DNA from: a bacterium
Lineage (GTDB): Bacteria; UBA8248
Reading direction: 5' to 3'
NCBI GenBank assembly: GCA_965207065.1
Contig: OZ242260.1
Location: forward strand, 1,376,001-1,440,000
Length of the DNA stretch: 64,000 bases
A program made the position numbers and the translations under genes. The notes under the pieces are model-generated. The model saw nothing but the letters and a program-made list of their open reading frames with translations. It did not search any database and had not been told where the DNA came from. Positions 9,411-57,232 of the stretch are shown here, piece after piece. The stretch's first letter is position 1. Each line of letters opens with the position of its first letter.

Positions 9411-9440
9411 TCACTATCTCCCGGGAATCCCCCAAAATCG

Positions 9441-10133: not shown

Positions 10134-10298
10134 CTTTCTCCTCTCACCTTAATTCATTCAACAAACGCAAGACGCTCGAAGAGTTCACCCGTGAATACTC
10201 TCATCCCTTCAGAAGCGGGAAGAGAGACATCACGGCATTCTCGCATGACGACTCGCCTGGCGGAAAGAATCTCCGGAACCCGGATGACTCGGACCGAG

Positions 10299-11684: not shown

Positions 11685-11724
11685 CGGAAAACCTCCTCAC
11701 CCCCTGTGGAGGATATACGGGATT

Positions 11725-12036: not shown

Positions 12037-12038
12037 GC

Positions 12039-13403: not shown

Positions 13404-13497
13404 GCGAGGCTCCTGAGGTATTTTGACCGGAATATACTCGAAACCTACACGATCGCACCTGCCCGGTAAACGCTGTGAAATACAAGTTCAGCGGCGT

Positions 13498-13935: not shown

Positions 13936-13960
13936 CTTGTCGTTCCTCTCTGGTTTTCGT

Positions 13961-14776
<816 letters not shown>

Positions 14777-14796
14777 GACACTCTCCTATCTGCGCG

Positions 14797-15657: not shown

Positions 15658-15671
15658 AGAAAATTCCTTTC

Positions 15672-17021: not shown

Positions 17022-17070
17022 GATTCGCGATTCTCCTCGACTCGTTTGATACGCGCGCAAATCCCCTCAC

Positions 17071-17107
17071 GCCCATCCGGGAGGATGAACAATCCTTCCG
17101 GATGGGC
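17071..17107. other. Intergenic stem-loop between SBP gene and M20 gene
   Basis: GCCCATCCGGGAGGAT gaaca ATCCTTCCGGATGGGC near-perfect inverted repeat. Confidence 0.6.
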
Positions 17108-17138
17108 AGGGGAAAAGTGTTCCGGTATACCTCTCGCC

Positions 17139-38043: not shown

Positions 38044-38295
38044 ATGAGAAGTGGCGATGAAATGTTGAAACAGATTGTCGATAAGTCCGCCTTGGACGCA
38101 GATTTCAGGCAACAGCTGCTCGCAGACCCGAAATCGACCATCAGTCAGGAATTGGGCATCACGATCCCTGATTCGATGAATGTCGTGGTCCATGAGAGCG
38201 ACATGGAGACGGTGCATCTTGCGTTGCCCCCGGATCCGCATATCACCGAGGAGCAACTCGAAGCCGTCTCGGCCGGGCTTTGCTGCTGCTGGTAA
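38044..38295 (+). CDS. srpE: NHLP-leader (proteusin) RiPP precursor, core LCCCW
   Basis: DADFRQQLLADPK...HLALPP...ITEEQLEAVSAG|LCCCW; AG double-glycine-type cleavage site. Confidence 0.92.
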   Translation: MRSGDEMLKQIVDKSALDADFRQQLLADPKSTISQELGITIPDSMNVVVHESDMETVHLALPPDPHITEEQLEAVSAGLCCCW

Positions 38296-38359
38296 ACCCG
38301 ATTTCCGGAGAGTAGCGGGGTCAAGACGCGGAACAATTCAAATCCGCGTAGTAAAAACG

Positions 38360-38400
38360 TAAACAACTCCTCGTCCCTATCGGGATGAGGGGTTTGTTTA
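38360..38400. terminator. Probable terminator between convergent precursor and maturase operon
   Basis: TAAACAA-CTCCTCGTCCC tatc GGGATGAGG-TTTGTTTA imperfect hairpin. Confidence 0.55.
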
Positions 38401-38418
38401 TGCCCGCTTGAGACTGAT

Positions 38419-39537
38419 TTATATGGAGACCGCTCCGGAAAGCACCATGAACACATAGGCCTTGGCCTGCTTCAACTGATTTTCGGATATGACCAGCTTG
38501 ATGTGGTGAATGCCCCGCAGCAGTACGAATTGTCCGGTTTTGGCGAACAGCGTCGTCGGTTTCGATACCCAGTCGGCAAGCGCCTCGATCTTCTCCGGAA
38601 CGACAAGTTCCTCATGTCCCAGGGCTTCCAGAAACGGGTCCCAATCGGTCAGGCCGTCGAGCCAGTAACGTGAATCTTTCGTATATCTCTGCTTGACGAT
38701 GAGCGTCAGGCCGAGCGTCGGACCGACACCCTCTTCGCGCACGTCGAGGTTCGCTCCGGTTCTCACAATTTCCGCGCGTTCCTGGAAGCGTGAAATCAAA
38801 GCGTCTACGGCCGAGAGCCGACCCGGCCAGCCGATGTTCTCGAGATACGAACAGATTTCCCCCTGCGATTTGAAGCCCATGATCGCCAGGCGGATTGTGC
38901 GTTCACGGGACGGGAATACCCCGAACGAATCCAGGCGCGTGTCTTCGGGCTGCGCCAGGTAAACCCGTTCGGCGTTTTTCCGTTCAGCGGCGCTCTTTTC
39001 CCAGCCGACGGCGGAGACGAGGGCGTCAACCACGATCCCGACATCATTCTGGAGGCCGTCGCCACCGGACAGCGTGCGCTCACCGGGCCGCAGGAAGATT
39101 CCCGGCAGCGAATTATCACTGCCCGGCGCCGAACCTACGTCATACTCCAGCATCAATTTACGTCCCACGATCTCTCGCAGAGGCGAGTCCTGGGCTTCCA
39201 TTTCCCTGAACAGCCGCCTGACCGCTCTCGCGGTCTCATCCGTCTCGTCGGTCCGCGCCAGTTCTTCGAAAAAATCGCCCGAGCGGTTTCCGCTCGCCAG
39301 CGAGACGCCGAAATCCGCCACCGGCCGGCCCTCATGCAGAGGCAGCTCGAAACCGAACGGCTGGGCGCCCATGGTGATGGGAAGCCCGCTCGCGAGTTCG
39401 AGTATGCGTCCCCATTCCCGCTCTCCGATAAGAGTCGGAGAAATCCTGCTTCGAAATTGCCCGAGCAAATCTCCCATGGTGCCGCCCTCTTCGGCGAGGC
39501 GGTCCTGGGTAAGCGCGACTGCTTCGTCGATATCCAT
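38419..39537 (-). CDS. Hypothetical RiPP maturase, putative ABBA-type aromatic prenyltransferase
   Basis: FGFELPL..ADF, MLEYDV, SRERTIRL, NLDV, HHIKL...AKAY pattern; last gene of the maturase operon. Function inferred. Confidence 0.5.
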   Translation of the reverse strand: MDIDEAVALTQDRLAEEGGTMGDLLGQFRSRISPTLIGEREWGRILELASGLPITMGAQPFGFELPLHEGRPVADFGVSLASGNRSGDFFEELARTDETDETARAVRRLFREMEAQDSPLREIVGRKLMLEYDVGSAPGSDNSLPGIFLRPGERTLSGGDGLQNDVGIVVDALVSAVGWEKSAAERKNAERVYLAQPEDTRLDSFGVFPSRERTIRLAIMGFKSQGEICSYLENIGWPGRLSAVDALISRFQERAEIVRTGANLDVREEGVGPTLGLTLIVKQRYTKDSRYWLDGLTDWDPFLEALGHEELVVPEKIEALADWVSKPTTLFAKTGQFVLLRGIHHIKLVISENQLKQAKAYVFMVLSGAVSI

Positions 39538-39546
39538 GTTGCCTCC

Positions 39547-41865
39547 TTACGCGATTACAGGCGCGGGGTTCAAATCGGCTTCGGCCAGGGGGTGCTTGCG
39601 GCGGCCCATGTCGAGGGGTGCGTCGTACAGGCGCCCGGGCGCGAATCTCGCCCAGAAATGGCGCATGCCCGGTACGATGACCCGCGCAACCGGCATGCCG
39701 ATGTCCGGCCGGGTCTGGTCCAGCACGAGGAACTCCATGCCCTTGGCTTCCACCAGCGCCCGGCAATGTTCCACATCCTCAAGAGTGTCCGCAGTTTCGA
39801 TCTCCGGATACTCCGGGCCTTGCCTGAGCGGCGCGTCCGGCGTCGGCGACAGCCAGGAACAATCGGCGATTCGAGCCGTCTTCCACCAGTTGAGCGCCAG
39901 CGGATCGTCGATCATGGGCCGGCCGTCGCCCCCTCCGGGACGCGGCAGCCAGGTAAGGCACTGGTTCAACTCGCAAACCGCGCGCAGGGCCGCCAGCCGC
40001 GGGTCGGCATGCGCGCCGGCGCCGTATATGATGTCCTCGGTTTCCGCGTCTAGTCTGCGCGAGAGCGCGACGAACGCGGGAATGCCGATGTCGGAAGTAA
40101 CGTCGAGCATCCACACTTCCCGCTCGTAGCGGGCGTAATAATCCGCGGCCGACGCAAGGAATTCGTCGTCGAAGCTGAGAAGATCAACCCCGGGCGCTCT
40201 CAGTTCGTTGTACCACCAGATGGCGAACGCATCGCGCTCGACCAGTTCATAGAAGCCTTGCAGGATGGCCTCCTCCAGGGTGTTCCCTGCGGCGCAGCCG
40301 TTGGAGTCGGCGATCAGTTCGGCGTCTCCGCGCTGTTCGGCGGACATGCTGTAGAGCATCGACGTCGGCAGATAGCGGTGCCGCCGCTGCGTGAACGACC
40401 ACACCGGGGTCCAGTCGATTTCGGCACCGGGTTCGAGACGCGGCGGGACGATGTTGTACGGGTGGCCTTTCGCGTTGATGCTTTCCGCGTTGTCTAGCTG
40501 GTCCTCGCTGAACAGCTGCGCATCGTTGGGATGGATCGCCCCGTCTTCCGCGGCGAAGTCGATGAACCGCTTGCGGATGCGGATCTCGTCTCCGCAACAG
40601 GCGCCCGAATAACGCTCGATCGCCTCGCAGAGGGCGCTGGCCTCGGATTGCGCCCGCGTGCTGCCCTTGCCGGCGCTCTTGCTGCGGAGGCTGCGCCTGA
40701 GCGAACTCAGGCTCCGGCTTCTCATGGCGGGATTGCTTCCGGCCCAGTAGACGTGCAGCCAGGAGTCGCTCTCATCGGTCGTGCGCGCCAGCCAGGTGAC
40801 GACGCCGCTGATCGGGCTTACCAGGTGGCGGTATTTCGCCAGTGTGGCTTCCGGCGTCACGGCCCGCGCGCCGCCGCTGTTGCGATGGACTTTGGGGCTC
40901 GCACTCAGACTCAGCGGCGCCGGCGGTCGATCCGGCCGGTAGAGCGCCTCGTCGCCACAGGCCGCACACTGCGGGCGGCGCATCACCGAATGATGCGAGC
41001 TTGCGAACGTGGCGACATTCATCGCAATCGCCTTATCGTGAATCGGGGCCGCATCGTCCAGCACCAGCCATTTGACGATCTCCGCCGCGACCAGGCCGTA
41101 CAGCGCCTCCAGCACCGCGGGCTCGGCGGCGAACGGCTTGAAGGCGGCTTCCTCACCGACAAAGCTGCGCAGGAAGTTGTGGGTCTCCTTATGGCAGCGC
41201 AGGCGGTAGGCCAGGCACTCCCGGCAGGGTCCTTGCTCATCCGCGCGGAAGACGGGGCCGAACAGCGCCTCCATGCCGCGCGGCCGCACCAGCATCCACG
41301 GCGCTCCCGCCTCGAGCCGGCGCCGATTCACGTCGGCAAGCCGTGCGTCGAGATAGTCGTCGCAGACGACAACCGTGAGCCGGGGGTCGCCGCTCGCCAC
41401 ACCGGCGCCGATTTCTGCCAGGCGCCGGGCGAGGCGGCCGTCGTCGCCTTCGACCGCGACCCGCGACTCCGCCAGCCGCCCTTCGGCCCAGCGGGGCGAT
41501 GCGCCGAGCGAGGCCCAGTAGGCCGCCCGGGGTCGGTCCATGCCGTGATCGGCGGAGACGACATAGCCCCTGGCGGAGAGCGAAACCACGGCCGCGAGAA
41601 CGTCGGCGGCGGCATGGCGGCCCTCGAGGGCGGCGGCAATCCCGGCCAGCGGGCGCCGGCCGCCCAGAAGCGGCAGCAGAGCGGGATACAGGCCGCCGTG
41701 CAGCAGCGTATCGAACGACTCGGACACCAGCAGGGTCTGCCCTTCGCCGATTTCGTGGAACTGCAGGTGCGGGGTGAGCGCGGGGAACTCGACGAGGCCC
41801 TGGTCCGCCGGGGTCGTTTTGGTCAATATCCCGCGTCGGGGAGTCGTCTTGGTCTGTGGTGACAT
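39547..41865 (-). CDS. srpC: Fused leader-binding/E1-like + YcaO cyclodehydratase (TOMM type)
   Basis: GPVF..GPCRECL, RRPQCAACG, SAGKG, EAIERY, SNGCAAG, ELVERDA, Pro-rich C-terminus LNPAPV. Confidence 0.93.
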   Translation of the reverse strand: MSPQTKTTPRRGILTKTTPADQGLVEFPALTPHLQFHEIGEGQTLLVSESFDTLLHGGLYPALLPLLGGRRPLAGIAAALEGRHAAADVLAAVVSLSARGYVVSADHGMDRPRAAYWASLGASPRWAEGRLAESRVAVEGDDGRLARRLAEIGAGVASGDPRLTVVVCDDYLDARLADVNRRRLEAGAPWMLVRPRGMEALFGPVFRADEQGPCRECLAYRLRCHKETHNFLRSFVGEEAAFKPFAAEPAVLEALYGLVAAEIVKWLVLDDAAPIHDKAIAMNVATFASSHHSVMRRPQCAACGDEALYRPDRPPAPLSLSASPKVHRNSGGARAVTPEATLAKYRHLVSPISGVVTWLARTTDESDSWLHVYWAGSNPAMRSRSLSSLRRSLRSKSAGKGSTRAQSEASALCEAIERYSGACCGDEIRIRKRFIDFAAEDGAIHPNDAQLFSEDQLDNAESINAKGHPYNIVPPRLEPGAEIDWTPVWSFTQRRHRYLPTSMLYSMSAEQRGDAELIADSNGCAAGNTLEEAILQGFYELVERDAFAIWWYNELRAPGVDLLSFDDEFLASAADYYARYEREVWMLDVTSDIGIPAFVALSRRLDAETEDIIYGAGAHADPRLAALRAVCELNQCLTWLPRPGGGDGRPMIDDPLALNWWKTARIADCSWLSPTPDAPLRQGPEYPEIETADTLEDVEHCRALVEAKGMEFLVLDQTRPDIGMPVARVIVPGMRHFWARFAPGRLYDAPLDMGRRKHPLAEADLNPAPVIA

Positions 41866-41898
41866 GCGGGAATCCTGCGTCTGCCCGGTCGGCGCTTT

Positions 41899-44261
41899 TT
41901 ATGCGCGCGAAACGAGCGTATCGATCCGGGCGGCGGCGCTGGATGCGGTCTCGGCGACCGCCGACGCCAGCGCATCGAAATCCTCCTGACCGCAAGCGTC
42001 CGCAAGGAGTGATTTGACCTTCGGCCCTGCCGCCGCCGCGTCGAATCCCTCTTCGCCGACAAGACGCATGACCCCCTGTAAGTCCCGCCACATGGCCGCG
42101 GCTTGCGCCAGCGGCTCGGCGCCGGATCGTCGAGGCCGTTTCCGGCGCGCGTCAACTGCAGGTAGCGCGCGGCCCTCTCGACATCGTCCAGCCCGCCGCG
42201 CATCCGGGCGTATGCGGGCACGCCCGTTTCGGCGGGGTCTTCGGTCCGCTCGCTCAACCGGGCGAGCAAGGATTCGTCCGCGGCGCATTCGGCCAGTATC
42301 CGGCGCCGCGCCTCCTCGTAGCGGCCGGCGACATCGGAACCGCCATACTCGAAGGCGCAACGCGCCCTGGTGAGAGCGGGAACCTCACCTGAAGTCGAAT
42401 TTCCGGAATGCCCGGCCAGCTCGGAAAGCGGCAGCGCAAGAATGGTATTCGAGCCGGGCGGGACCGGGGAGAACAACAGGCTGTCCTGCGACAGGTCGGA
42501 CAGAGCCTCTTGGAAACTACGGCACACCTGCTCGTTTTTGCCGGACCGCAGGCCGTCGTGGAGGATCAGCATATCGATTCCGACGCCGGGATATGCTTCG
42601 CGGCTGGCCAGATCGCCCAGGAGAACGGCGGCGACTCCATCCACGCTCAGCATCCCGAAGCGGTCGACATAATCCGCGACCACGGAGGCGAGCACGGTCG
42701 AGATCGACGCTTCGGCGAGATTCGAGAGCGCCGTTCTCGCTTCCGCCGGCAACAGGTTACCGCGCATCACGTGCATACCGATCTGAAACGCCTTGTCGTT
42801 CGACCAGTTTCGCACGATTTCAGCGGTTTCCCTCGCATCGGCCACCGGCAGTTCGGCGACCAGACCCTTCAATTCCCCAACGTCCATCTCGTAAGTCCAG
42901 TAGACTCTCGCCAGCCCGCGCCGCGCTATCGATTCGTATTCCTCATCCGGCCCGAACCCTTTCGGCAGGTCGAGGTCGAGGAATTCCTGGTCCTGCAGGT
43001 TGTCCAGAAGTTCCGGGTTCCGCTCAATCCGTTTCGCAAGCCTCGGGGCGGCGCCGAAGATTTCGAGTATCGCGTCGAATGCGTCGGGCCGCGCCGCGGC
43101 GATCGGGCTGTCGTAGGGGCCCCAGTCGTCAATCTCCGGATAGAAATGCTTGCGCCACTGGTCCACCAGCGGGTCCATCTTCTCGAACCAGCGCTTGGGC
43201 CGCAGCACGATGTTCATCATGTCGGCGTAGGTTCCCGGCAACTCCGGCGACTCATCGAGGCCGCTGACCTGCAGCAGCGGATACTGGCGCGACGCCACCG
43301 CATGATGGTCCGCATGGCGCTGCATATTGAAAAACATCCAGTTGCTGAACTTCCAGTCGGCGCTCCAGGAATGGCGCGGCATCGCCTTTTCCCAGCGGCC
43401 GTTGTCCAGACGGACCCGGCGCAGGCCGTAGTGTTGAAAGTAGTTGCTCATCTTCATCGAAAAGACGCAGGACAGACCGAGGAAGACGAAGACGGGAACG
43501 GCCCAGATTCCGCCCATCCAGTAAACCAGTCCGTACCAGAACGCGACGCCGACGCCGTAGCGCCAGAACGGATTGTCGTAATGCCACATGGGCAAACGCC
43601 GCCGCGCCAGGCGTTCTCTTGCGACTTCCCAGGAATGGACGAGGTTGCTGACGACTTCCTTGGGGAAATATTTCCAGAAACTTTCCCCCTTCGGAGCGGA
43701 ACCCACGTCATACGGCGTGCCGACCAGGGCATGGTGAATATAGACGTGTTCCGTGGCGTATTGCGGATAGGAGACGGTGGCGAGCAGGAATTCGCCCACC
43801 CGGCGCTCCCAGGTCGTGCGCCGGTGAATCATTTCGTGGCCGACTACGAATACGGCTTGCGCTTCCATCGTCAGGATGATCGCCAGGAGCACGCCTTCCC
43901 AGATGGAGAATTGATCCGCCGCCAGGATTTGCCACATACCGAAAATGAGCGTCGGCGGCCACAGAAACGACCACGACCAGACCGGCAGATTGTGCCAGAA
44001 CAGGCGGTGCTCCGACGTATTCGCCGGGTCCATGTTTTGTCCGTCCCGACCCAGCGCCCTATCGAGCGACCCCGCAACACTCATAAAGACGAGCGGCGGC
44101 AGCAACCACCAGCCTCCATTGTACACGCCGAGAAGAATCAGCGGAAAAACAACCAGTGGCAGATAATGCGGAAGGGCGGTCAGAATGGAAGGCTCGATAG
44201 GCCGAGTGGCGTCAGCGTTGCCTGGGCCGGAGCCACCACTTGCAACCGGACTTTGTGGCAT
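41899..44261 (-). CDS. AlkB-like membrane diiron monooxygenase/desaturase fused to degenerate GlnE-like domain; frameshift near 42120
   Basis: HEMIHR, EHVYIHH, NYFQHYG, QRHADHH His boxes. C-terminal LLGDLASRE..DMLILHD and RGGLDDVERAARYLQL. The tail continues in the frame of ORF 41899-42360. Confidence 0.8.
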
Positions 44262-44343
44262 GTCAGCTCCTCAACAGTGGGCATATTGAAACCCTTGAAC
44301 CGGAGGCAATTTTATCCTCGAATCCATGAACCTGCAAGGATTT

Positions 44344-45645
44344 TCAGGCTTTCAGGATTGCGAGGAGACGCTCGAGGGCTTCGATGCAGAACGCGGTTGT
44401 CACGGCTTCGGAGCCATGTCCAATCCGCCCTACCGTGCCCCACTTCAGGGTTTGGTCGCCGAACGCGAGGAGTTCGGGCCAGCTGCCGTCCTCGCGTTGC
44501 GAACCCGTGAACCTTTCCACCTCGCGTTTCGCGTCGATTCTATCGAGGCATCCGACATGGTGGAGCGCCGAGGCGGCCTGAGCCGATTGAAGGATGTTGC
44601 CGAACCCCCCCTCCTCGTCCCGCAAGCCCAGGATGCGCTCCGCAAGTACCGGGCGCAGCCGGTCGAGGGCGGGCCGTGCGCGATTCACGGCGCGGGCGGT
44701 CGCATAGCAGATAGCGACCTCGTCGGGATACCATTTCGACGACCCCTCGAGATTGCCTTCGGTTATCAAGGCTTCCAGCCATCGCCGGGCATCCCTGGTT
44801 TCTGGGCAGTCGCCGAGATAGGCGATGACGTTCGCATTGACCACGGGGTCGGCTTCGATACGGAAGCGCGATACGACATCGGGTTCGTCGTCTTCGAGAA
44901 CCCAGGTCATGAAGCGGCCTTCCTCGTCGCGATTCGCCAGTATCTGCGGAACGTTCCGCCCCATCAGAATCCAGGGGTGGCCTCCAATCACGAGTGAACA
45001 CAGCGCGGTGCTGTCGAGATCCTGGGGCAGATGGCGGTAATAGCGCCACAATCCGGGATATTCGATGGTTTCGGCGAGATACGCCTCGGTCGCGGCGCAG
45101 ATGGCCCTGGCGCGCGCTTCCTCGCAACATTCCAGGGCGAGGACGCAGAAAGCCGATACGAAAGGAGGTTTCTCGAAATGCCGCGGTATGTCCGGGTCGC
45201 CTACGTTGAACCGGATGCAGCGCCAGGCGCCGTTTTCGTCTATGGCGGATTCCAGGAAATCGAGACCGCGGCGGATGCTTTCCCTGCCCGCTTTCGCAAG
45301 CGCTTCGGTGGTCGCCGCGCTCTTCGGGACTCTCTCCCCTTGAAGTTTTGGAGGACGAAGGGGCGGCGCGGGGTCGTGCATCGTTTTGCGAAGAAACTCG
45401 ATCGATGCCGCGCCGGTTTTCGCCTCCTCCCGTTCCGCCTCGGTGAATTTGCTGCGCGGCGGGAGGACGAGGTGCGTCGCGGTGTAGGTTTCTTCGTGCA
45501 CGTGAATCTCATGGTCTTCGGCCATCGTAACGCCCAATTCCGCTTCGATGGTCTCTTTGGGCCTGGCGAGAAGACGTTCTCTAAAGTCGTAGTCGCCGCC
45601 GGCTCGCGATATCAGGAAATCGGCAGCGTCAAAGGGCTTCTTCAT
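44344..45645 (-). CDS. NHLP-leader-like domain fused to class II terpene cyclase / prenyltransferase-squalene-oxidase-repeat domain
   Basis: N-terminal DYDFRERLLARPKETIEAELG...HLVLPP...FTEAERE; then DENGAW, PQDLDSTA (DxDDTA-like), DPVVNANV, QREDGSW. Confidence 0.75.
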   Translation of the reverse strand: MKKPFDAADFLISRAGGDYDFRERLLARPKETIEAELGVTMAEDHEIHVHEETYTATHLVLPPRSKFTEAEREEAKTGAASIEFLRKTMHDPAPPLRPPKLQGERVPKSAATTEALAKAGRESIRRGLDFLESAIDENGAWRCIRFNVGDPDIPRHFEKPPFVSAFCVLALECCEEARARAICAATEAYLAETIEYPGLWRYYRHLPQDLDSTALCSLVIGGHPWILMGRNVPQILANRDEEGRFMTWVLEDDEPDVVSRFRIEADPVVNANVIAYLGDCPETRDARRWLEALITEGNLEGSSKWYPDEVAICYATARAVNRARPALDRLRPVLAERILGLRDEEGGFGNILQSAQAASALHHVGCLDRIDAKREVERFTGSQREDGSWPELLAFGDQTLKWGTVGRIGHGSEAVTTAFCIEALERLLAILKA

Positions 45646-45719
45646 GGATGTCTTCTCCATTTTCGCGGGCCTTGGCCGAACGTGCATTTTACCGCCGGGC
45701 TGCTGTCTGCATATTCTGG

Positions 45720-48662
45720 TCAGGCGATTTGCCTTTTGATCAACTCCTTGAATACCCCGTCGACCTCCTTGAGTTCGTTGAAGGTACCGCTTTGAACGAC
45801 TTTTCCGCCTTGCAGCACGTAGATGCGGTCGGCCTGTTCCAGCGTGGACAGGCGGTGGGCGATGATGAGCCGGGTGGAAGTCAGGTCGGCAAGGTTCCGC
45901 ATTACCTTGGCCTGGCTTTCGTTGTCCAGCCAGTTCGTCGCCTCGTCAAGCAGCATGATTCGCGGGCTGCCGATCACCGAGCGGGCGATCGTGATGCGCT
46001 GACTCTCGCCGCCCGAGAGGACGGACCCGCTGGCGCCCACCATCGTCATCATGCCCATGGGCATGTCCCTGATTTGGGCTTCGACTTCGGCGGTCCGGGT
46101 CGCCGCCCACACTTCCTCGGTCCCCACCGCATCATGGTGGCTGACCAGATTGTCCCAGAGATCTTGTGGATGGAGTCCAACGGATTGCGGCACCGCTCCA
46201 ATTTTCCGGCGCACCTGTTTCAGATTCAGGTGCCTCAGGTCGCGTCCGTCGTAATACACCGCACCGGCGGCCGGCCAGTCGATGCCGAGCGCGAGCCGGA
46301 ACAGGGTGCTCTTGCCGGCGCCGGACTCACCGGCAATCGCGATGAATTCGCCGGGACGGGCGTGAATCGTGACGTCGTCGAGGATCAACGGACCGTCGGG
46401 ATCGTAGCGGAAGGAAATGCGGTCGAACAGTATTTCACCGCCCAGGAATTCAACCGGCTCTCCTTCCGTCACGGTTTCAGGAACGGCGGAGAGAAGCGGG
46501 CGCATCTGCTCGAACGCCGGCCGCATGGCGGCAATGGCGCCGAAGGACTCGCCGAGCCGGGCGATGGCGGACTGGAAAACGATAAAGACCGTGTAAACGA
46601 CGAGAAAATCGCCGACCGGTATGTCCCGGTCTCCCGTCGCCGCCACCGCGAAAAGCAGAACCCCGCCGGCAAAAAAGGGAAGCGCGGCGCCGAATGCCCG
46701 CGAATGTCCCTCAAGCGCGCCCAGTTCAATCTCTGCGCGTTTCTGCTCGCGATAATCCCTCGCCCAGATGGCATAGGCCGACCCTTCCGCATTATCCATT
46801 CGCAGCTTGGAGATGCCTCCCACGAGCTGGAACAGCCGACCGGCTACACGCCGCGCCGCGCTGATCATCCGCCCATAAGGTGAAATCTGGCGCAACCCGA
46901 GGACTACGGCGACCAGCAGCGAAGCCAGGCTGAAGACGAGGGTGATGAGGCCGAGGGTGGCGTCGTAGAAGAAAATGACGCCAAAAACCGGAAGCAGAAA
47001 AATAATCGACAAAAAGCTGTTGGCGACGATTCCCCGCAAGCCGTCGCGAAGGTTCTGGAACGTCATCCCCGACATTGCCAGATCTCCGGCGGGATGGCGG
47101 TGCAGAATGCTTGACGGAAGGCGCATGAGACGGTCCCAGAAGGCGGCTTCGACCCGGGAAGCCGAGCGCCCCTCGAGCCGCATCATCGCCGTGCTTTGGA
47201 ACAGTTGCAGGAGAGCGCCGAGCAGACCGAACGCCGCTAACGCCACGGCGACGGTATAGAGCGTTCCTGTGCTTCCGCCCGCTAAAATTTCATTCGCAAC
47301 GAATCCGAGCGCGAGCGCCGGCAGCAGCTTGATCATGCCGTATGGAAGCCCGGCAATGACCAGACGCGCCAAATCCGCGGCCGACCCGCGCAGGGCGATT
47401 CTTAGCAGGTCTGCCAGTTTCACGTTCTCCGGCGGCAATGGCCGATAGAACATCCAGGCTTCTCCCTCCAGCGCGCCCGCGCGGTCCGCCGTGACCCGGC
47501 GGCTGCGTTTGCTGACCGGGTCGATTTCCCGGTATCGCCCGAACATTCCCGGCAACAGCGCCACTGGCTGGCCGTCCTCGGCGCGGAACGCCAGCATCGC
47601 GTTGCTGTCGCCGCGCCACCAGCTGCCCTCGGCTTTGAACCGCACGCGCCGGGCGCGTAAGCCCGACGCATCGAGAACCTCGACGAGGCCGACCGGAGAA
47701 TCGGAAAGTCCCGCACGCGCCGGAATCTTGAAATCGATTCCTTCATGGCGGCCGATGAGTTGCAGGGCATCCGCCAGCGCCGTGTCCTCGACACTGGCGT
47801 CCCGGTCGATCGGAAGGTCATAGATGTTGAACAGCCGCTGCCGCGCGGCTTTTTCCGCCGTGCGGCGGCTGGTAGTCCGCGCGCGTTCGAGATTGACGTC
47901 ATCGACCACGACCAGTCGGCGGTTCAGGCGTTCCAGGGAAAAAGCAACCGCGTGAAAAGAGGCGAGCGCCGGCAGCAGCGTGCCTTGCTCCGCCAGGGTT
48001 TCGGTTGATAAGCCCGTCAGCGTCGCTTCGTCGAACAAGGCGAGCCAGCTTGTGCGCGTCAGCGGAATAACGGCGTCGTGCGGGCCGCTCGCCTCCGCCA
48101 GTTCCGCCGGGTCGACGATACCCATGAACAGGCTCGCGCCGCGCGGCGGTTCGGATACCCATACCACGCCGCGCCGTACGGATAGCGTACAAGGGGCCAG
48201 GGTCTGCGTCCGACCGGGTTCGGCCAGCGCGGTCGGGCGCGGAAGGGGGCTTGCGAAACGGGACAGTGTTTCAGCAATGGCGATCAGCCAGGTATCGGTC
48301 TGTTCCGCCAGTTCCGCCGGATGGACCCGGGACAGCAGGGAAGCCGGCAGACGTTTCAAAATGGTGCCCGGCAGTCCTTTGGCGATGATGCTGAGCGTAT
48401 TGTCTTCGTCACCCTCTCGCTGGTCCGGCGACACGCCCGGCAGCAGCCAGCCCGACTCCCGGCGCAGCAGATGCTGCGGCGCCGCCTGCTCCACCCCGTC
48501 CTTGAGTTCGGCGAGGAACAGATTGACGGCGCCCTGATCGATGAACCAGACGCTGTCCGGGTCGTCGAGCTTGACCGGCAGGTTGCCGGCGCAGGGTACG
48601 GACGCGCCGAAGCGAGCGGCGAGTTCGGCGATGGACGTGTATTCCGGCTTTGTGTGCTGCAT
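45720..48662 (-). CDS. NHLP bacteriocin export ABC transporter permease/ATPase
   Basis: LDASGLRARRV, GESGAGKST, LSGGESQR, LDEAT, IAHRLST. Confidence 0.9.
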   Translation of the reverse strand: MQHTKPEYTSIAELAARFGASVPCAGNLPVKLDDPDSVWFIDQGAVNLFLAELKDGVEQAAPQHLLRRESGWLLPGVSPDQREGDEDNTLSIIAKGLPGTILKRLPASLLSRVHPAELAEQTDTWLIAIAETLSRFASPLPRPTALAEPGRTQTLAPCTLSVRRGVVWVSEPPRGASLFMGIVDPAELAEASGPHDAVIPLTRTSWLALFDEATLTGLSTETLAEQGTLLPALASFHAVAFSLERLNRRLVVVDDVNLERARTTSRRTAEKAARQRLFNIYDLPIDRDASVEDTALADALQLIGRHEGIDFKIPARAGLSDSPVGLVEVLDASGLRARRVRFKAEGSWWRGDSNAMLAFRAEDGQPVALLPGMFGRYREIDPVSKRSRRVTADRAGALEGEAWMFYRPLPPENVKLADLLRIALRGSAADLARLVIAGLPYGMIKLLPALALGFVANEILAGGSTGTLYTVAVALAAFGLLGALLQLFQSTAMMRLEGRSASRVEAAFWDRLMRLPSSILHRHPAGDLAMSGMTFQNLRDGLRGIVANSFLSIIFLLPVFGVIFFYDATLGLITLVFSLASLLVAVVLGLRQISPYGRMISAARRVAGRLFQLVGGISKLRMDNAEGSAYAIWARDYREQKRAEIELGALEGHSRAFGAALPFFAGGVLLFAVAATGDRDIPVGDFLVVYTVFIVFQSAIARLGESFGAIAAMRPAFEQMRPLLSAVPETVTEGEPVEFLGGEILFDRISFRYDPDGPLILDDVTIHARPGEFIAIAGESGAGKSTLFRLALGIDWPAAGAVYYDGRDLRHLNLKQVRRKIGAVPQSVGLHPQDLWDNLVSHHDAVGTEEVWAATRTAEVEAQIRDMPMGMMTMVGASGSVLSGGESQRITIARSVIGSPRIMLLDEATNWLDNESQAKVMRNLADLTSTRLIIAHRLSTLEQADRIYVLQGGKVVQSGTFNELKEVDGVFKELIKRQIA

Positions 48663-50872
48663 CAGCCCGACCTGACCAGCTTGTAGTACGCACCGTCCCG
48701 ATCCGCGATCAACTCGTCGTGGGTGCCGCGTTGCACGGTGACGCCTTTGTCGAGCACGATAATTTCATCGCAATCCCGCACGGTGCTCAGCCGGTGCGCC
48801 ACGATCAGGCAGGTGACGCCGCGCCGCCGCAGGGCTTCATCGACTAGTTCCTCCGTTACGGCATCGAGTGCGCTGGTGGCCTCGTCCAGAATGAGCACCG
48901 TCGGATTGCCCACCAGCGCACGGGCGATTTCCAGGCGTTGCTGCTGGCCGCCGCTGAAATTCGCGCCGCCTTCTTCGACGAGGGTCGAGTACCCTTGCGT
49001 TCGAAGCAGGATTTCGTCATGGATTTGGGCATCCCGTGTGGCGGCGAAGAGGACTTCATCCGGGACGGCCGGGTTCCACAACGTGATGTTGTCGCGCAGG
49101 GACGCGGAAAAGAGCACGATCTCCTGGTCCACCATGGATATGGACTGCCGCAGCACTTCCTCTGGAATCTGATCCCGCAGATGATCATCAAACAGGATTT
49201 CGCCCGACCAGGGCGGATAGACACCCGATACCAGCCGCGCCAGTGTCGACTTGCCGGAACCGCTTGGACCGACCACGGCAACGCGCTGCCCCGGCTTGAT
49301 CACGAGGTTGAAGTCCTTTATCAAAGGTGGCCGGCTCTTGTTGAAACCGAAGGTGAGGTTTCGCAGTTCGAGCTGGCCTGCAAGCTGGAGCCGACCGTTG
49401 AACGTGGGGATTGACTCCGGTTCCGGATTTCGGCGACTGAAAACGGGGTCTTCATCGGTTTTGGAGATGTCCTCGAGACGTTGCATATCGGTTTCGAGCG
49501 CCTGGCGGTTTTCGGCAAACTCCAAAAAACGCCTGACGGGGGCCAGAAACATCTCGGCCAGGATGTAGAACCCGACCAGCGTCCCCAGGGTCATTTCTCC
49601 GGTCATGACCAAACCGCCCCCGATGCCGAGAATCGCCGCGCTGCGGAGCGCGTCGACCAGCCCCGGAAGCGAGGTGCTGATGGAGCCCAGTTCGGAATAG
49701 AGCTGGCGCGCACGCAACTCACGCGCCTGTTGACCGCTCCAGCGCGAAAAGAAACGGTCATCCGATCCCGTCATGCGCAGATTGTCGGAATGACTCAGCA
49801 TCTGCATGCCGAGGCCGATCAGCAGTCCCTGCTCGCGCCTCATCGCCTGGCTTCGGACAGCCCGAAGGGCGTTGAGAAAGTGGGCTAGCATTCCGTGCAG
49901 AAGGGCCAGCAAAAGCACGATCAGCGTGAGCAGGATATCGTAGGCGAACATCGCCATGAGCAACACCACGCTCATCGCCATGTCGATAATGAGAACCAGA
50001 AACTGGTCCGCCAGATTCCTGGCGATTCTGTCGGTGGACGAGACCCGGTCGGTCAGGTCGCCCGCCAGTCTGTGTTCGAAAAACTCCACCGGCAACCGCA
50101 GCAGACGTGACACGCTGCGACTGAAGCCAATCACCGATACCCGGACGGCGAGCCGCTTGAGGAATCGGTGCTTGAACAGGGACAGGACGTATACCAGGAG
50201 GCCGCCGCCGAGCAAGGCGGTCACCAATCCGCCCCAGGATCCGTGTTTTTCGATGACATCGTCGACGAAAACACCGAGAGATGCGGGAATAATCAACGTC
50301 AATAGCGTCAGCATGAGTCCGCAGGCAATCACCCCGGTAAGCAAATTCCATGATCCGGCGAGCAGGGCGCCCAATTGCCTGAACAAGTCGGGCCGCTCGC
50401 CCCCGGGCTTGAAATCAGCGCCGCGCTTGAAGCGAAGCGCAATGCCGCTGTAGTCCTTGTAGAACTCTTCGGCGGAAATCCTGCGCCGCCCCGTGGAAGG
50501 GTCATTGAGATGGAAATGACGGCCATCGAATCCATCGAGGACGACGAAATGGCTGAATTGCCAGAACAGAATCAAAGGCAACTGCAGCATTTTCAGTTGA
50601 TCGGCGCGTGCGCTGAGCCCGCTGCATTCGAGGCCATAGTGTCGGGAGGCGCGCAAGATGCTTGCGGCGCTGCTGCCGTCCCGGCTCACCTCGCATTTTT
50701 CGCGCAATTCGGTAAGCGGCACCCATCGCCCGAAGTAGGCCAGTACGATGCCGAGACAGGCGGCGCCGCATTCCGACGCGTGCATCTGCAACAGAATCGG
50801 TGTGGTCACCTTCCGTTTCGATACGTCCGAAGAGGCCTTGTCCCCGGCGTCTTTGGAAGCGGCCGTCGGCAT
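48662..50872 (-). CDS. NHLP bacteriocin export ABC transporter with C39 peptidase domain
   Basis: QMHASECGAACL, HFVV, LNDP catalytic motifs; GPSGSGKST, FSGGQQQR. Confidence 0.93.
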   Translation of the reverse strand: MPTAASKDAGDKASSDVSKRKVTTPILLQMHASECGAACLGIVLAYFGRWVPLTELREKCEVSRDGSSAASILRASRHYGLECSGLSARADQLKMLQLPLILFWQFSHFVVLDGFDGRHFHLNDPSTGRRRISAEEFYKDYSGIALRFKRGADFKPGGERPDLFRQLGALLAGSWNLLTGVIACGLMLTLLTLIIPASLGVFVDDVIEKHGSWGGLVTALLGGGLLVYVLSLFKHRFLKRLAVRVSVIGFSRSVSRLLRLPVEFFEHRLAGDLTDRVSSTDRIARNLADQFLVLIIDMAMSVVLLMAMFAYDILLTLIVLLLALLHGMLAHFLNALRAVRSQAMRREQGLLIGLGMQMLSHSDNLRMTGSDDRFFSRWSGQQARELRARQLYSELGSISTSLPGLVDALRSAAILGIGGGLVMTGEMTLGTLVGFYILAEMFLAPVRRFLEFAENRQALETDMQRLEDISKTDEDPVFSRRNPEPESIPTFNGRLQLAGQLELRNLTFGFNKSRPPLIKDFNLVIKPGQRVAVVGPSGSGKSTLARLVSGVYPPWSGEILFDDHLRDQIPEEVLRQSISMVDQEIVLFSASLRDNITLWNPAVPDEVLFAATRDAQIHDEILLRTQGYSTLVEEGGANFSGGQQQRLEIARALVGNPTVLILDEATSALDAVTEELVDEALRRRGVTCLIVAHRLSTVRDCDEIIVLDKGVTVQRGTHDELIADRDGAYYKLVRSG

Positions 50873-50873
50873 C

Positions 50874-51425
50874 TTATGATCGCCTCATTCGAAACAGCGT
50901 GATCGGAGATTGCCTGCCGAGCTCGATGACGAACCGGCATTTCCTGCCCTTCAGGGAATCCGAATCCACACTTTCTTCGAGCGCGATATCGACGCGGAGC
51001 AGGGACACCGGCGCCGCGGACTCAAACGCCGCCTGCCCCCCGGAGAAAGGCACGGCGGAAATCGCCCTGACCTTTCCGGCAAGCGCGCCTGTTTTTCCGT
51101 CCGCCGTATCCGGCTCTATCACCACCGGCATCCCGGCCTCGATACGTGGAGCGATATCGCTGTCGACCCAGACGAGGGCCCGCACGGACCGGCCGCCCCC
51201 GGGCGAGTTTTCGCCTTGCTCGACCACTACGCCGTCCACCGCGAGACTACGGGCCACGCTGCCAAAGAAGAGCCATGCACAGAGGATGCACAGAACAAGA
51301 GCGATTGCGGCGACAAGCAGACGCTCCCGCGGCGTTGAAATCGTCAGCAACCGGTCGAGTTGCTCGCGTTCTTCCTTCGCTTCGGCGACAATATTATGAA
51401 AAGAATCGAATGGATTATTGAACAC
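50874..51425 (-). CDS. Short NHLP secretion (HlyD-like) accessory protein
   Basis: EQLDRLLTISTPRE + TM helix, C-terminal QSPITL; much shorter than a typical membrane fusion protein. Confidence 0.65.
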   Translation of the reverse strand: MFNNPFDSFHNIVAEAKEEREQLDRLLTISTPRERLLVAAIALVLCILCAWLFFGSVARSLAVDGVVVEQGENSPGGGRSVRALVWVDSDIAPRIEAGMPVVIEPDTADGKTGALAGKVRAISAVPFSGGQAAFESAAPVSLLRVDIALEESVDSDSLKGRKCRFVIELGRQSPITLFRMRRS

Positions 51426-51857
51426 GACGGCAGGGCAACCCTCTCGTTGTAATCAAGCAAGGTAAAAAAACATCATACCATCCGGTAAAAAGAAATGTAA
51501 TTCCACACAATCCGGCTCAAGAATCGTCGGCGTTTGGGAAGCAGTGGATTTCCGATGGGCGGAACAGGCCGTTCGTTTACTCGTTTTCGGAATCAGTTGC
51601 TCCGGGGAGCCGGCCACGAACCGCCCGCGCCTCTCGCGCCGCAACATTTCTCGAGGTCGCCCTCACGGCGACTGACATACAAAATCACAGGGCGGGGAAT
51701 TTTTCAACGGCCTTGTTTGGACGCCCTGCGCAGCAGGCAGACGATCTTCTCCGGTTTGCAGAACTTTCCCGTCATCCTCGGTCCAGCATTTGCGAACCCG
51801 GGGGAACCGATCCTACGGCGCGGAATCAACCTTCGTGAAACTTTACGGACCCGGCGC

Positions 51858-53150
51858 CTAGCAGCTCAGCCCCTGGGACATCTGGCAATAACTGGAGAGA
51901 GGGAAAAACGCCAACGTCCGATTCCAGTCCGATTTGTCAATGACCGACTGGTTCATCAGTTCGATCATTTCGTCGAATTTGCGGAGCGCGTCGCAATCCA
52001 CCACCTCGGGATCCACCACCTTGCGGTGTCGAGGCCAGGCGTTGTCTCGAGCGTGGCGCCAGAATCCGCTGTCGTATCTGGAGCCACAGGAATAGTGCCA
52101 ACCGACGAATAAGCCGAAGCAGAGCATGGTATTGGTGAGGAATCGATTGACCACCAGAGCATCGCGTTCGAGATATTCTACCGAACGGTTAAGGCGTAAA
52201 TGGAGAACCATCCCGACCTCTACCTGTGCGGATACGATCGCCGTTGCTTCGAGGGGTTCCATGAAGGCGGCTGCGTTGCCGATGCGAGCCACCGCGCCAT
52301 CGTACATGTGACGATGGATAAAATTGGGAAACGGAATGACGGCGCGCTGCTCGAACTCCGATACGCCATCGGTCTCGAGGAAAGCGTCGAAATCCGATTC
52401 GACTTCGTCGAGGCCGGATACGTCGCGGTTGAAGATGTACCCGTAGGATGTGTGCGCTGTAAGCGGAATAACGACTATCCAACCGTGCGGACGCGCAACC
52501 GCGCGGGTATAGGTAGGTTGCAGAAACGGGCCGTCCTGCTCTTTTTTGACGATTGCAGGGCAGCGGCGGATGACGGCCGTATTCGTGGGGATGAAAGAGA
52601 GGTCGATGTGCCGGTCCGGGTCTAGTTCTGCGGGAAAGCCCCGGGCATCAAAGACCAAATCGTAGCGTTCCGCCGGCCGGCCCTCGAATTCCACTTGCGC
52701 GCCGCCTTCCACCCTGGTGATACCGGTTACTTTCGCGTCGATGCGGCTCGCGCGCGTGCTTTCATGCAGCAGGTCCGCCATCAAGTCGACGGACAGATGG
52801 TAGGCGTAGGACACCTGTTGCGGCGTGAAATAGTGGGTGAAGTCGCGATTGCGCCGACCCCATCCCTCGAATGTTACACCGTACTTGCGCGTTCCTTTCA
52901 GGCGCTGCTGGACTGTTTCATGGGGAAGATTCGTAAGTTGACACAAATCCTGCACGAGACTCGGCCAGCTGCCTTCGCCTACTCCGAGGGCCGGGATGCG
53001 CGAATCATAGATGTGATGCAGCTCGTGGTCGCTCTCGGGTAGAAGACGAGTCACATTGGCGGCCGCAAGGGACCCTGCGGTTCCCCGCCCGACAACCGCG
53101 ATCTTCCGTAATGATTTAGCGCCCGGCTGTATCATCCTACTCACTTTCAC
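51858..53150 (-). CDS. srpI: Flavin-dependent tryptophan halogenase family protein (peptidyl-Trp brominase-like)
   Basis: VVGRGTAG, GVGEGS, TRKYGVTFEGW (catalytic Lys), GWIVVIPL, IGNAAAFMEPLEATAI. Confidence 0.85.
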   Translation of the reverse strand: MKVSRMIQPGAKSLRKIAVVGRGTAGSLAAANVTRLLPESDHELHHIYDSRIPALGVGEGSWPSLVQDLCQLTNLPHETVQQRLKGTRKYGVTFEGWGRRNRDFTHYFTPQQVSYAYHLSVDLMADLLHESTRASRIDAKVTGITRVEGGAQVEFEGRPAERYDLVFDARGFPAELDPDRHIDLSFIPTNTAVIRRCPAIVKKEQDGPFLQPTYTRAVARPHGWIVVIPLTAHTSYGYIFNRDVSGLDEVESDFDAFLETDGVSEFEQRAVIPFPNFIHRHMYDGAVARIGNAAAFMEPLEATAIVSAQVEVGMVLHLRLNRSVEYLERDALVVNRFLTNTMLCFGLFVGWHYSCGSRYDSGFWRHARDNAWPRHRKVVDPEVVDCDALRKFDEMIELMNQSVIDKSDWNRTLAFFPLSSYCQMSQGLSC

Positions 53151-53508: not shown

Positions 53509-53895
53509 TTATTCGGGGCGCAGCAGGCTTTTGGCCTTATCCCCTTCCGGCGTCACGGCCAGCACCTCGAGACTCGGCCGCGCGGGGCTCCTCGTGAGGA
53601 GGAGTTCCACGGGCTCGTCGAGCGCCATGATCTCGTGCACCTCGCCGGGGCGGAACTGCACCAGATCCCCCGGCGCGGCTTCCAGAATCTCTCCTTCCAC
53701 GGCGATGCGGAGCCCGCCCTTCAGGAGATAGAGGAACTGCTCGTCATGGTGATAATGCGGGTTGGAATGGCCCCTCGCCTCCATGCGGAAATATCCGATG
53801 GTGGTGTGAGCGCCATCGACCCACGCGGCGTCTGCGGTCACGTAGTCGGCGGCCTTTCCCTGGTTCTGAGCGGCGAGATTTCTGTAAATCGGCAT
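53509..53895 (-). CDS. Cupin domain protein
   Basis: HSNPHYHHDEQFLYLLKG, PGDLVQFRPGEVH. Confidence 0.85.
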   Translation of the reverse strand: MPIYRNLAAQNQGKAADYVTADAAWVDGAHTTIGYFRMEARGHSNPHYHHDEQFLYLLKGGLRIAVEGEILEAAPGDLVQFRPGEVHEIMALDEPVELLLTRSPARPSLEVLAVTPEGDKAKSLLRPE

Positions 53896-54046
53896 GGAAT
53901 GAACTCCTGTAGATGAGGTGATGACCGAAGATGGAACCTCAGGCGTATTCTAACGGCATGGACTCGCAATCTGTCCAGCCCCCATGTATATTTGTGCGGC
54001 AAAACAGGCGTTTCCCTCACTTCAAAAAGTTATTCGGAGGCATTTC

Positions 54047-55081
54047 GTGAGCGCCCCATCGGTGGATGAATTCGAGTATTTCTTCGATAAACCCTGGTCG
54101 GACGGCCTGCCGGTCATCCCCCCGACGGAAGAGCGTCTGGGCCAAATGCTTGCAGGAACGAGCCGTGATCCGGACGAAGTAATCGGCGACGTACCTCCGT
54201 TACTGGCGCAGGCGGACGTTCGGACCATTGCCGTTCATGCCATTATGGCAGGGTGCAAGCCGGCGTATATGCCCGTTCTCATCGGGGCCGTGGAAGCCAT
54301 TCTGGAGGAAAAGTTCAACGTGGGCGGCGTGCAGGCGACGCTCTCTTGCGCTGCTCCACTTTTGATAGTTAACGGCCCTTACGCCAGGGAAATCGGTTTA
54401 CACGGCGGGCTGGGCTGTTTCGGCCCCGGGAATCGCGCCAACGCGACGATTGGCCGCGCCATCAGGCTTTTGCTCCTCAATATCGGCGGCGGAATTCCGG
54501 GTATCACCTCGATGAGCACGTTCTCGCAACCGGGGAGGTTCACGTACTGTATCGCCGAAAATGAAGCGGAAAGCCCCTGGGAGTCTCTCGCTCAGACGAA
54601 TGGTTTTGATGCGGAGGATAACGTTGTCACCGCCGTGCATGTGGAAGGTCCCGTCATGTCCTGGGATGACGTGAGCGACGACCCCGAGCGGATGTTGCCC
54701 TCCATCGCGGACACCATGTCGCATCTGGGTTCGTGGAATTGTTGGGCCAGCACCGATTTGGTGGTCGCGATGAGCCCGCAGCAGGCCGCGATTTGCGCAA
54801 AGAGGGGGTATTCAAAGGCGGATGTCCATGGACGCCTTTGCGAAATCGCAGGCCGTTCGGTGGGCGAACTCAAAACGGGAGGTCATTTCCGGGAAAATCG
54901 TATTCAGGATTTTCCGATCCCCGTCGATCTGGATGATGACGATGCGTTTGTTCCGACGATTAAAGAAGCCCGGAGACTGCTCTTGATCGTGGCGGGCGGG
55001 GTTCCGGGGCCGATAACGGCCGTGATGCACGGCTGGAACGGCAGCAGCCGTTCGGTTTCTCGCGCATTTGAATCGTCATGA
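54047..55081 (+). CDS. UGSC-associated large-domain protein, tandem paralog 1
   Basis: WSDGLPVIPPT, AIMAGCKP, GCFGPGNRANATIGRA, ENEAESPW; GTG start after GGAGG. Confidence 0.82.
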   Translation: MSAPSVDEFEYFFDKPWSDGLPVIPPTEERLGQMLAGTSRDPDEVIGDVPPLLAQADVRTIAVHAIMAGCKPAYMPVLIGAVEAILEEKFNVGGVQATLSCAAPLLIVNGPYAREIGLHGGLGCFGPGNRANATIGRAIRLLLLNIGGGIPGITSMSTFSQPGRFTYCIAENEAESPWESLAQTNGFDAEDNVVTAVHVEGPVMSWDDVSDDPERMLPSIADTMSHLGSWNCWASTDLVVAMSPQQAAICAKRGYSKADVHGRLCEIAGRSVGELKTGGHFRENRIQDFPIPVDLDDDDAFVPTIKEARRLLLIVAGGVPGPITAVMHGWNGSSRSVSRAFESS

Positions 55082-55104
55082 TATCCACTTCTTTCAATGG
55101 GTGA

Positions 55105-56139: not shown

Positions 56140-56180
56140 CGCCGGAATCTCCACGACAGTCAGAGTGGTATCAGATTTCT

Positions 56181-57197: not shown

Positions 57198-57232
57198 GCC
57201 TTCCTGCCAGGCTTGCTTTTGAGGATGAACGC

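Follow-up and report, generated by a model that had tools for sequence, protein, structure and literature searches.

A predicted terpene cyclase with a leader-like domain and a candidate prenyltransferase among the core genes of srp proteusin clusters

The window analysed here is a stretch of 64,000 nucleotides of bacterial DNA (contig OZ242260.1, positions 1,376,001 to 1,440,000), and its positions 38044-53150 hold a nine-gene cluster for a peptide of ribosomal origin that is modified after translation (a RiPP); the cluster is, we are almost certain, a sponge-derived RiPP proteusin (srp) cluster. Beside the precursor, the YcaO enzyme and the halogenase by which srp clusters are known, it encodes a 372-amino-acid protein of an unnamed family, an AlkB-like protein and a predicted class II terpene cyclase fused to a domain that resembles the precursor's own leader. 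These three genes are core srp genes. On balance we lean towards a product that is a brominated tris-thiazoline peptide carrying a cyclised and oxidised isoprenoid.

Identity and conservation of the cluster

The open reading frame (ORF) calls and translations at 38044-53150 show a plus-strand precursor gene convergent with eight minus-strand genes, and the nine proteins were typed with Pfam and NCBIfam. All nine genes sit where an earlier note, made from the letters of this stretch, had placed them. The SrpE-type precursor (38044-38295, plus strand) has 83 amino acids, with an NHLP leader (TIGR03793, E 2e-19) and a C-terminus reading ...ITEEQLEAVSAG-LCCCW-stop, in which an AG site stands before the core LCCCW. 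The YcaO protein (39547-41865, minus strand; PF02624, E 5e-91; TIGR03604, E 6e-81) is of the SrpC type and has an N-terminal winged helix and a thiazole/oxazole-modified microcin (TOMM) leader-binding domain of the RiPP recognition element (RRE) type (TIGR03882, E 9e-40). The flavin-dependent peptidyl-Trp halogenase (51858-53135, minus strand; PF04820, E 6.5e-44) is of the SrpI type. Its ORF opens at 53150 and its start is most likely M6, at 53135; read from M6, it shows the GRGTAG motif, and its K84, Y102 and Y110 carry the published SrpI numbers in a comparison of residue numbering. The nearest solved relatives of the halogenase are Trp halogenases.

In the accessible parts of the srp papers, an LCCCW core on an NHLP-leader precursor is the feature that defines srp clusters (PMC10286304, 10.1101/2023.06.09.544420). 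SrpE has the core LCCCW, in which the YcaO enzyme SrpC turns the three Cys into thiazolines, and SrpI brominates the indole C6 of the Trp, which must be C-terminal, only when the proteusin leader is attached (PMC10286304, PMC10858898; accessible parts). In SrpI, K84 is the catalytic Lys, and Y102 and Y110 are self-brominated (PMC10286304, accessible part). The srp RiPPs are highly transcribed across phyla according to the part of the preprint at hand (10.1101/2023.06.09.544420), and further conserved srp genes have been labelled "genes of unknown function" (PMC11832590).

The cluster in the window shares with srp clusters the NHLP precursor with LCCCW, the leader-binding YcaO, the leader-dependent Trp halogenase with K84, Y102 and Y110, the NHLP-type exporters, the lack of an azoline oxidase and the spread over many phyla of sponge microbiomes. 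It differs in nothing essential, only in that this copy's AlkB-like gene has a frameshifting deletion of 34 base pairs (bp). The founding srp paper, on SrpE, SrpC and SrpI, is said to be Nguyen et al., JACS 2021. The sequencing runs that contain the window's stretch include ones labelled sponge metagenome, and X13, one such run, covers it. The srp-type call of the earlier note is thus borne out by the LCCCW core, the YcaO and the SrpI-like halogenase.

To follow the gene set in other genomes we scanned one genome per species with the cyclase protein, which returned 148 relatives; 80 loci, 62-91% identical, were kept and their genes counted by tblastn, many of these loci stopping short at a contig border or at the limit of the 10-kb flank. 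They come from metagenome-assembled genomes labelled Nitrospinota, Nitrospirales, Gammaproteobacteria, Alphaproteobacteria, Gemmatimonadota, Binatia, Bryobacterales, Latescibacterota and others. The 372-amino-acid protein is present in 70 of the 80 loci, YcaO and the AlkB-like protein in 71 each, the two ABC proteins in 69 and 70, the HlyD-like protein in 52 and the halogenase in 48, and all nine genes occur together in 30. A precursor ending in GLCCCW was found in 58 loci, and LSCCW, LCCSW, LTCCW and LCCCGW in one locus each. When the count is restricted to loci whose precursor is at least 70% identical, 62 in all, YcaO is present in 59, the 372-amino-acid protein in 61, the AlkB-like protein in 57 and the cyclase in 62, the last by construction, as the loci had been fetched with the cyclase protein. 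The earlier note had made its reading depend on conservation of these last three genes beside LCCCW precursors, and conserved they are. In related loci they are placed between YcaO and the exporters in conserved order. Dozens of genomes share this gene set in this order, far more than chance could account for.

A search that did not start from the cyclase gave a consistent picture. The GLCCCW-stop pattern occurs in 10 of 51 genomes of the window's phylum, and a reversed-pattern control in none. These ten are exactly the genomes with a cyclase match at E <= 1e-196, the two lying about 6-7 kb apart when on the same contig; one further genome of the 51 has a distant cyclase only. As all ten genomes belong to one genus, this co-occurrence shows linkage and not independent events. 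One relative (loci L001 and L002, on one 4.1-Mb contig, G027:C4) carries two srp copies, with the cores LCCCW and LSCCW, and three GLCCCW-stop patterns in total; within the flank, the second srp copy does not have all of the exporter and halogenase genes.

The terpene cyclase and the 372-amino-acid protein

The earlier note had read the gene at 44344-45645 (minus strand; P0005) as a class II terpene cyclase, and the sequence, the predicted fold and the catalytic residues uphold that call: with high confidence we predict that the protein is a cyclase of the monodomain type. The gene span given there is also right. The longer ORF covers 44344-45687, and several relatives have a stop upstream of its M15, so we take M15 as the start, which gives 433 amino acids. 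Pfam sees the barrel as a weak SQHop_cyclase_C match. A profile of the C-terminal domain matches the TC-beta domain of the drimenol synthase AsDMS (9mhs_B, E 8e-7) and the monodomain cyclase 8paj (E 8e-4), aligning LPQDLDST with FPDDLDTT of AsDMS and PADADST of 8paj, and SKWYPD with RYYPAP. In the profile alignment D209, D211 and Y306 fall on AsDMS D331, D333 and Y427, residues whose mutation abolishes protonation-initiated cyclisation (PMC12365925, accessible part). The DLDS and KWY motifs are kept in 75 of 75 ORFs of the cyclase family, and the barrel core is conserved at a mean column identity of 78-79%.

The AlphaFold2 (AF2) model of the cyclase has a predicted local distance difference test (pLDDT) of 74.6 and a predicted template modelling score (pTM) of 0.75. 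Searched with Foldseek, it matches AsDMS (E 4e-9) and 8pak/8paj and MstE (E 6e-8 to 2e-6) with target-normalised TM scores of at most 0.67, followed after these monodomain cyclases by squalene-hopene and oxidosqualene cyclases; sequence identity to the class II cyclase structures is 16-22%. Two other readings of the fold were considered and set aside. Matches to the beta subunit of geranylgeranyltransferase (GGTase), which a protein-prenyltransferase-beta reading would call for, are about 10^5 times weaker than the cyclase matches, and no LanC is among the Foldseek matches listed. With AsDMS (9mhs, 9m7d), MstE (6sbb) and 8pak/8paj the protein shares a single alpha/alpha-barrel, the D-x-D-(D/T/S)-T motif, the Tyr partner and QW-like repeats. 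It differs in its N-terminal partner, which is an NHLP leader-like fold here, a HAD phosphatase in AsDMS and absent from MstE, and presumably in its substrate, which would be a peptide-bound isoprenoid where AsDMS and MstE act on free small molecules.

The NHLP fold covers about residues 1-65 of the cyclase (TIGR03793, E 6.5e-11) and had been missed in the earlier note. Over 70 residues it shares 39% identity with the leader of the precursor (E 2e-10), and the NHLP positions R22, L25, P29, VHE49-51, H58 and PP62-63 are invariant in 28 of 28 aligned members of the cyclase family. It is difficult to see why the enzyme should have a domain homologous to the precursor's leader if it did not act in a leader-guided pathway. 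The leader-like domain would probably bring the enzyme to the precursor or to the leader-binding maturases. A more specific version, in which the peptide-terpenoid hybrid is made with the cyclase's leader copy acting as a pseudo-leader that docks on the leader-binding domain of YcaO or pairs with the precursor's leader, is possible, and we hold it only tentatively.

The protein was also considered as a second precursor or a substrate of the C39 peptidase; the positions -4 and -7 before its GA are K and E and not hydrophobic, and the catalytic motif is conserved, so this was rejected. A leader-like N-terminus that lacks the hydrophobic -4/-7 positions of a double-glycine site is a point for another reading, in which the cyclase-like protein is a noncatalytic leader mimic, its barrel a hydrophobic binding module, that competes for leader-binding sites and so regulates or blocks maturation or export. 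With D-x-D and Tyr kept in all 75 relatives, which come from many phyla, and with so highly conserved a barrel core, we consider a mimic very improbable.

The gene at 38419-39537 (minus strand; P0002) encodes the 372-amino-acid protein, which is probably, though well short of certainly, a prenyltransferase that acts on the core. It belongs to a large family: one search returned 940 proteins, and clustered at 50% identity the family counts 863 representatives. Two relatives, the partial P0241 and P0281 (660 amino acids), are Rosetta-stone fusions that join a cyclase domain and a P0002-like domain. In P0281 the cyclase comes first (residues 4-299, with the canonical DLDD motif; hhalign probability 100, E 5e-40) and the P0002-like domain follows downstream (residues 326-656; hhalign probability 99.4, E 6e-22). 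Among the named clusters of the ESM Atlas, the protein is nearest to a Trp_DMAT prenyltransferase cluster (0.90-0.91), which is a lead only; the PTase_Orf2 and DUF5838 clusters follow at 0.88, and 8-9 of the ten best named matches fall in one family or clan. In the family alignment, conserved D, E, R, K, H and Y lie on predicted strands, and such charged and polar residues would suit a diphosphate-binding barrel.

The "prenyltransferase" label of the earlier note therefore gains from the natural fusion to a cyclase domain and from the ESM Atlas likeness, and loses from the want of any match in Pfam, NCBIfam or the sequences of the PDB. The protein had zero matches in the three databases, alone or as the profiles A3 and A5, and its remote relatives gave relevant Pfam matches in 0 of 51 cases and relevant NCBIfam matches in 0 of 46; as no family matched, we do not class it in a curated prenyltransferase family (Trp_DMAT, PTase_Orf2 or the TruF/LynF type). 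Its single-sequence AF2 model has a pLDDT of 34.5, too low to define a fold, so that an order of helices and strands compatible with a ten-stranded PT-barrel (ABBA) carries no weight. A search for P0002-like fused forms of at least 656 amino acids found none, which is weak evidence, and metagenome scans with P0221 and P0281 found no relative. PF11468 has no match in the window's genome, but also none in 14 control genomes. A predicted complex of the 372-amino-acid family with the precursor family scored 0.18 against a mark of 0.32 and speaks neither for nor against binding.

With no detectable similarity to solved or curated prenyltransferases, the 372-amino-acid protein might instead be a scaffold, a chaperone or some other new tailoring enzyme; prenylation and cyclisation would still occur, with the cyclase-fold protein or a housekeeping enzyme attaching the isoprenoid. 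Prenyltransferase beta subunits do share the alpha/alpha-barrel, and Foldseek gave weak matches to two of them (6j7f_B, E 1.6e-3; 6o60_B, E 2.4e-3). However, the match of the cyclase model to class II cyclases is better by orders of magnitude than its match to GGTase beta, and it keeps the acid motif and not a Zn site; among the named families of the ESM Atlas, aromatic prenyltransferase clusters lie closest to the 372-amino-acid protein, and one family or clan supplies 9 of its ten best named matches; and known RiPP systems fuse a barrel prenyltransferase to an MstE-like cyclase (PMC13290415, accessible part). We regard this division of labour as quite unlikely, and keep the 372-amino-acid protein as the candidate transferase.

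A locus of another kind was seen in a same-genus genome without an srp cluster (L084; G023:C8:208500-228000, about 7887-17126). It has a stand-alone monodomain cyclase of 318 amino acids, 37% identical and with no NHLP domain, back to back with a P0002-like gene that is broken into pieces. Beside them are NHLP ABC and HlyD genes and the remnant of a decayed NHLP precursor (...TDEQLAGLC...), while YcaO, the halogenase and the AlkB-like gene are absent. The locus has the look of a sister pathway that is degenerating.

The cyclase and its partners could also stand apart from the peptide. The product would then be only Leu-(thiazoline)3-6-bromo-Trp, and the 372-amino-acid, cyclase and AlkB-like proteins would produce or alter a separate small terpenoid or lipid, or serve self-protection or membrane handling, and only accompany the cluster. 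SrpC and SrpI alone did suffice in the published reconstitutions of the core, as far as their accessible parts go (PMC10286304, PMC10858898), the cluster has no synthase for a prenyl donor, and the closest folds, AsDMS and MstE, belong to enzymes of free small molecules. Yet a separate pathway would leave three things to account for: the homology of the cyclase's N-terminal domain to the precursor's leader, with its invariant NHLP positions; the conserved order of the extra genes between YcaO and the exporters; and the P0002-like and cyclase pair that stands once more beside NHLP exporters and a precursor remnant in L084. We judge a separate role unlikely and prefer a part for these enzymes in the maturation of the peptide.

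The AlkB-like oxygenase, the exporters and the flanks

The AlkB-like gene (41899-44261, minus strand; PF00487, E 4e-26) encodes a membrane di-iron oxygenase, and the earlier call as AlkB-like is confirmed by an intact ortholog that matches the AlkB structure 8f6t at E 4e-47. An alignment of 56 sequences shows its His boxes HEMIHRR, EHVYIHH, NYFQHYGL and QRHADHH to be conserved. The C-terminal half is weakly GlnE-like (PF03710, E 8e-6; 3k7d, E 0.003). The protein thus shares with the alkane 1-monooxygenase AlkB (8f6t, 8sbb) the membrane di-iron type and all four His boxes; it differs in being fused to a GlnE-like domain and not to rubredoxin, and its substrate is presumably a peptide-bound terpene.

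Compared with its five closest relatives, the gene has lost 34 bp near 42126, and its frame shifts after about residue 716 of a normal 798 amino acids; neither this frameshift nor the GlnE-like half was in the earlier note. The shifted open frame continues to 41823, and the original C-terminus can be read in another frame that ends at 41899. The deletion (about 42114-42126) sits between short direct repeats (CGGCGCCGA-like), as slippage or recombination might leave it. In run X1, which may be the source sample, an independent contig has the same deletion and zero differences over 41500-42807, and the 34 extra letters are present in contigs of X3, X7 and X13, from three other studies. On these grounds the deletion is real in this organism and not common to close relatives. 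The cluster had been described as complete: its nine genes are indeed present, but with this deletion in the AlkB-like gene it is not fully intact.

In Gemmatimonadota-type and some gammaproteobacterial loci (L024, L028, L039-L045, L050, L052, L075 and others) the AlkB-like gene is about 50% identical and stands on the opposite strand, elsewhere in the cluster. This variant placement points to at least two architectural subtypes of srp clusters.

Export is encoded by three minus-strand genes. The first is an NHLP-type ABC exporter, NHLM_micro_ABC2, a permease and ATPase with a long N-terminal extension (45720-48662; TIGR03797, E 4.5e-198), and the second the C39-peptidase exporter NHLM_micro_ABC1, with a double-glycine peptidase (48662-50872; TIGR03796, E 4.7e-254; PF03412, E 8e-34). 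The third is a short HlyD-like membrane adaptor of 183 amino acids (50874-51425), which matches positions 6-57 of the 421 of TIGR03794 (E 1e-9); as it is kept in 52 of the 80 loci, it is a shortened form of the adaptor and not a fragment. None of the nine cluster proteins matches a nitroreductase or flavin mononucleotide (FMN) azoline oxidase family in the Pfam scan, in agreement with what had been noted before.

The cluster is flanked by unrelated genes: a cupin, four tandem paralogs, a molybdopterin oxidoreductase and enoyl-CoA hydratases. We found no ORF beyond 38044-53150 that is conserved beside the srp cluster in related genomes, and the borders drawn in the earlier note are therefore right. 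The small cupin protein (53509-53895, minus strand; PF07883, E 8e-13) lies between the halogenase and the paralogs and is not conserved beside srp clusters. The four tandem paralogous genes (53984-58252, plus strand), of 365, 344, 338 and 339 amino acids, are 51-57% identical to one another and belong to no Pfam family; missing from all 80 related srp loci, they are placed outside the cluster. Elsewhere in the same genome a second NHLP-like ORF (G000:C1:726254-726505, plus strand; locus L083) is 35% identical to the leader-like domain (E 1e-8) and may be another proteusin precursor.

Proposed pathway, precedents and meaning

The first steps of the pathway that we propose are in print for orthologs (PMC10286304, PMC10858898; accessible parts) and are drawn here by analogy. 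The leader would bind the precursor to the maturases, YcaO would make thiazolines of the three LCCCW cysteines, and the halogenase, acting on the leader-bearing peptide, would brominate the C-terminal Trp at C6. With no azoline oxidase encoded, the rings probably stay thiazolines. In the steps that we infer, the 372-amino-acid protein would attach an isoprenyl group of C15 or C20 to the core, where the invariant C-terminal Trp is the likeliest acceptor. With its D-x-D/Tyr acid the cyclase would next protonate the distal double bond and cyclise the chain, and the AlkB-like di-iron enzyme would hydroxylate or epoxidise the hydrocarbon part. The C39-ABC exporter would cut after AG, and export would run with the partner ABC protein and the short HlyD-like adaptor. 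The frameshift in the C-terminal domain of the oxygenase may impair the oxygenation step in this genome.

Several points, besides those given for the 372-amino-acid protein, weigh against such a product. The acceptor atom and the length of the isoprenoid chain are guesses, and bromination and prenylation would share one Trp as their target. No isoprenyl diphosphate synthase was found within the cluster, and no rubredoxin-type electron partner for the AlkB-like enzyme among the nine proteins or the flanking genes. The D-x-D of the GlnE-like domain is poorly conserved, and in the window's genome the oxygenase gene is damaged. The accessible parts of the SrpC and SrpI reconstitutions mention no prenylation (PMC10286304, PMC10858898), and we found no report of the final srp product in the accessible literature.

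That the combination is chemically reasonable is suggested by other RiPP systems, all cited here from the accessible parts of their sources. NctPC and ChrPC (Hubrich et al., Chem 2024) use C10-C20 donors to prenylate a Trp of a RiPP, and their MstE-like domain cyclises the chain (review PMC13290415). The pathway proposed for the window has the same logic, a C10-C20 isoprenoid on Trp followed by cyclisation by a monodomain class II enzyme, a likeness at the level of the described chemistry. The barrel transferase of NctPC/ChrPC has little similarity to cyanobactin enzymes (PMC13290415). In NctPC/ChrPC transferase and cyclase are one protein, whereas in the window they would be separate genes, the cyclase with its NHLP leader-like domain; the pathway predicted for the window adds a YcaO, a brominase and an AlkB-like oxygenase. 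Another enzyme, PalQ, acts on an NHLP precursor and prenylates its C-terminal Trp (PMC10853753). The mpp cluster of Moorena producens has a SrpI-like brominase, the Trp geranyltransferase MppC, a terpene synthase and an oxygenase (PMC11791876, PMC12715784), so that mpp and srp both unite in one RiPP cluster a SrpI-like leader-dependent brominase, a prenyltransferase (in srp a candidate), a terpene cyclase or synthase and an oxygenase; mpp is, however, a lanthipeptide cluster (LanM) with a Nif11 leader and the core ACWRWSG, whereas srp is an azoline cluster with an NHLP leader and LCCCW (PMC11791876, PMC12715784).

The RiPP/terpene hybrid of the earlier note is not a new kind, and in this respect the note was overstated, as Trp prenylation with cyclisation is reported for NctPC/ChrPC (PMC13290415, accessible part): prenylation followed by cyclisation is already known in RiPPs, and the window is a typical srp member. 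In the literature searched, which lay outside the founding srp paper, the NctPC/ChrPC paper and their supplements, we found neither an srp-terpene link nor a cyclase with a leader-like domain, and the names SrpB and SrpD did not turn up in the srp literature searched. The words "prenyl" and "desaturase" are absent from the accessible part of the srp preprint, where "terpene" occurs once, in a list of biosynthetic gene cluster types (10.1101/2023.06.09.544420), and the review PMC12426817 does not mention srp.

If the hybrid reading is true, an abundant srp metabolite would be Leu-tris(thiazoline)-6-bromo-Trp with a cyclised, oxygenated sesqui- or diterpene. If the cyclase's leader copy did act as a pseudo-leader, the pathway would use a multi-enzyme maturation complex, as opposed to an enzyme that reads the substrate leader through an RRE, and the cyclase would be recruited in a way of a kind not yet described for RiPPs. 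In sponge microbiomes the srp clusters rank with the most widespread and the most highly transcribed of all biosynthetic gene clusters, and a terpene cyclase, the 372-amino-acid family that fuses to cyclases and an AlkB-type oxygenase make the question of the srp product experimentally concrete. The cyclase with its leader-like domain may exemplify a new means by which tailoring enzymes are recruited to protein-like NHLP leaders.

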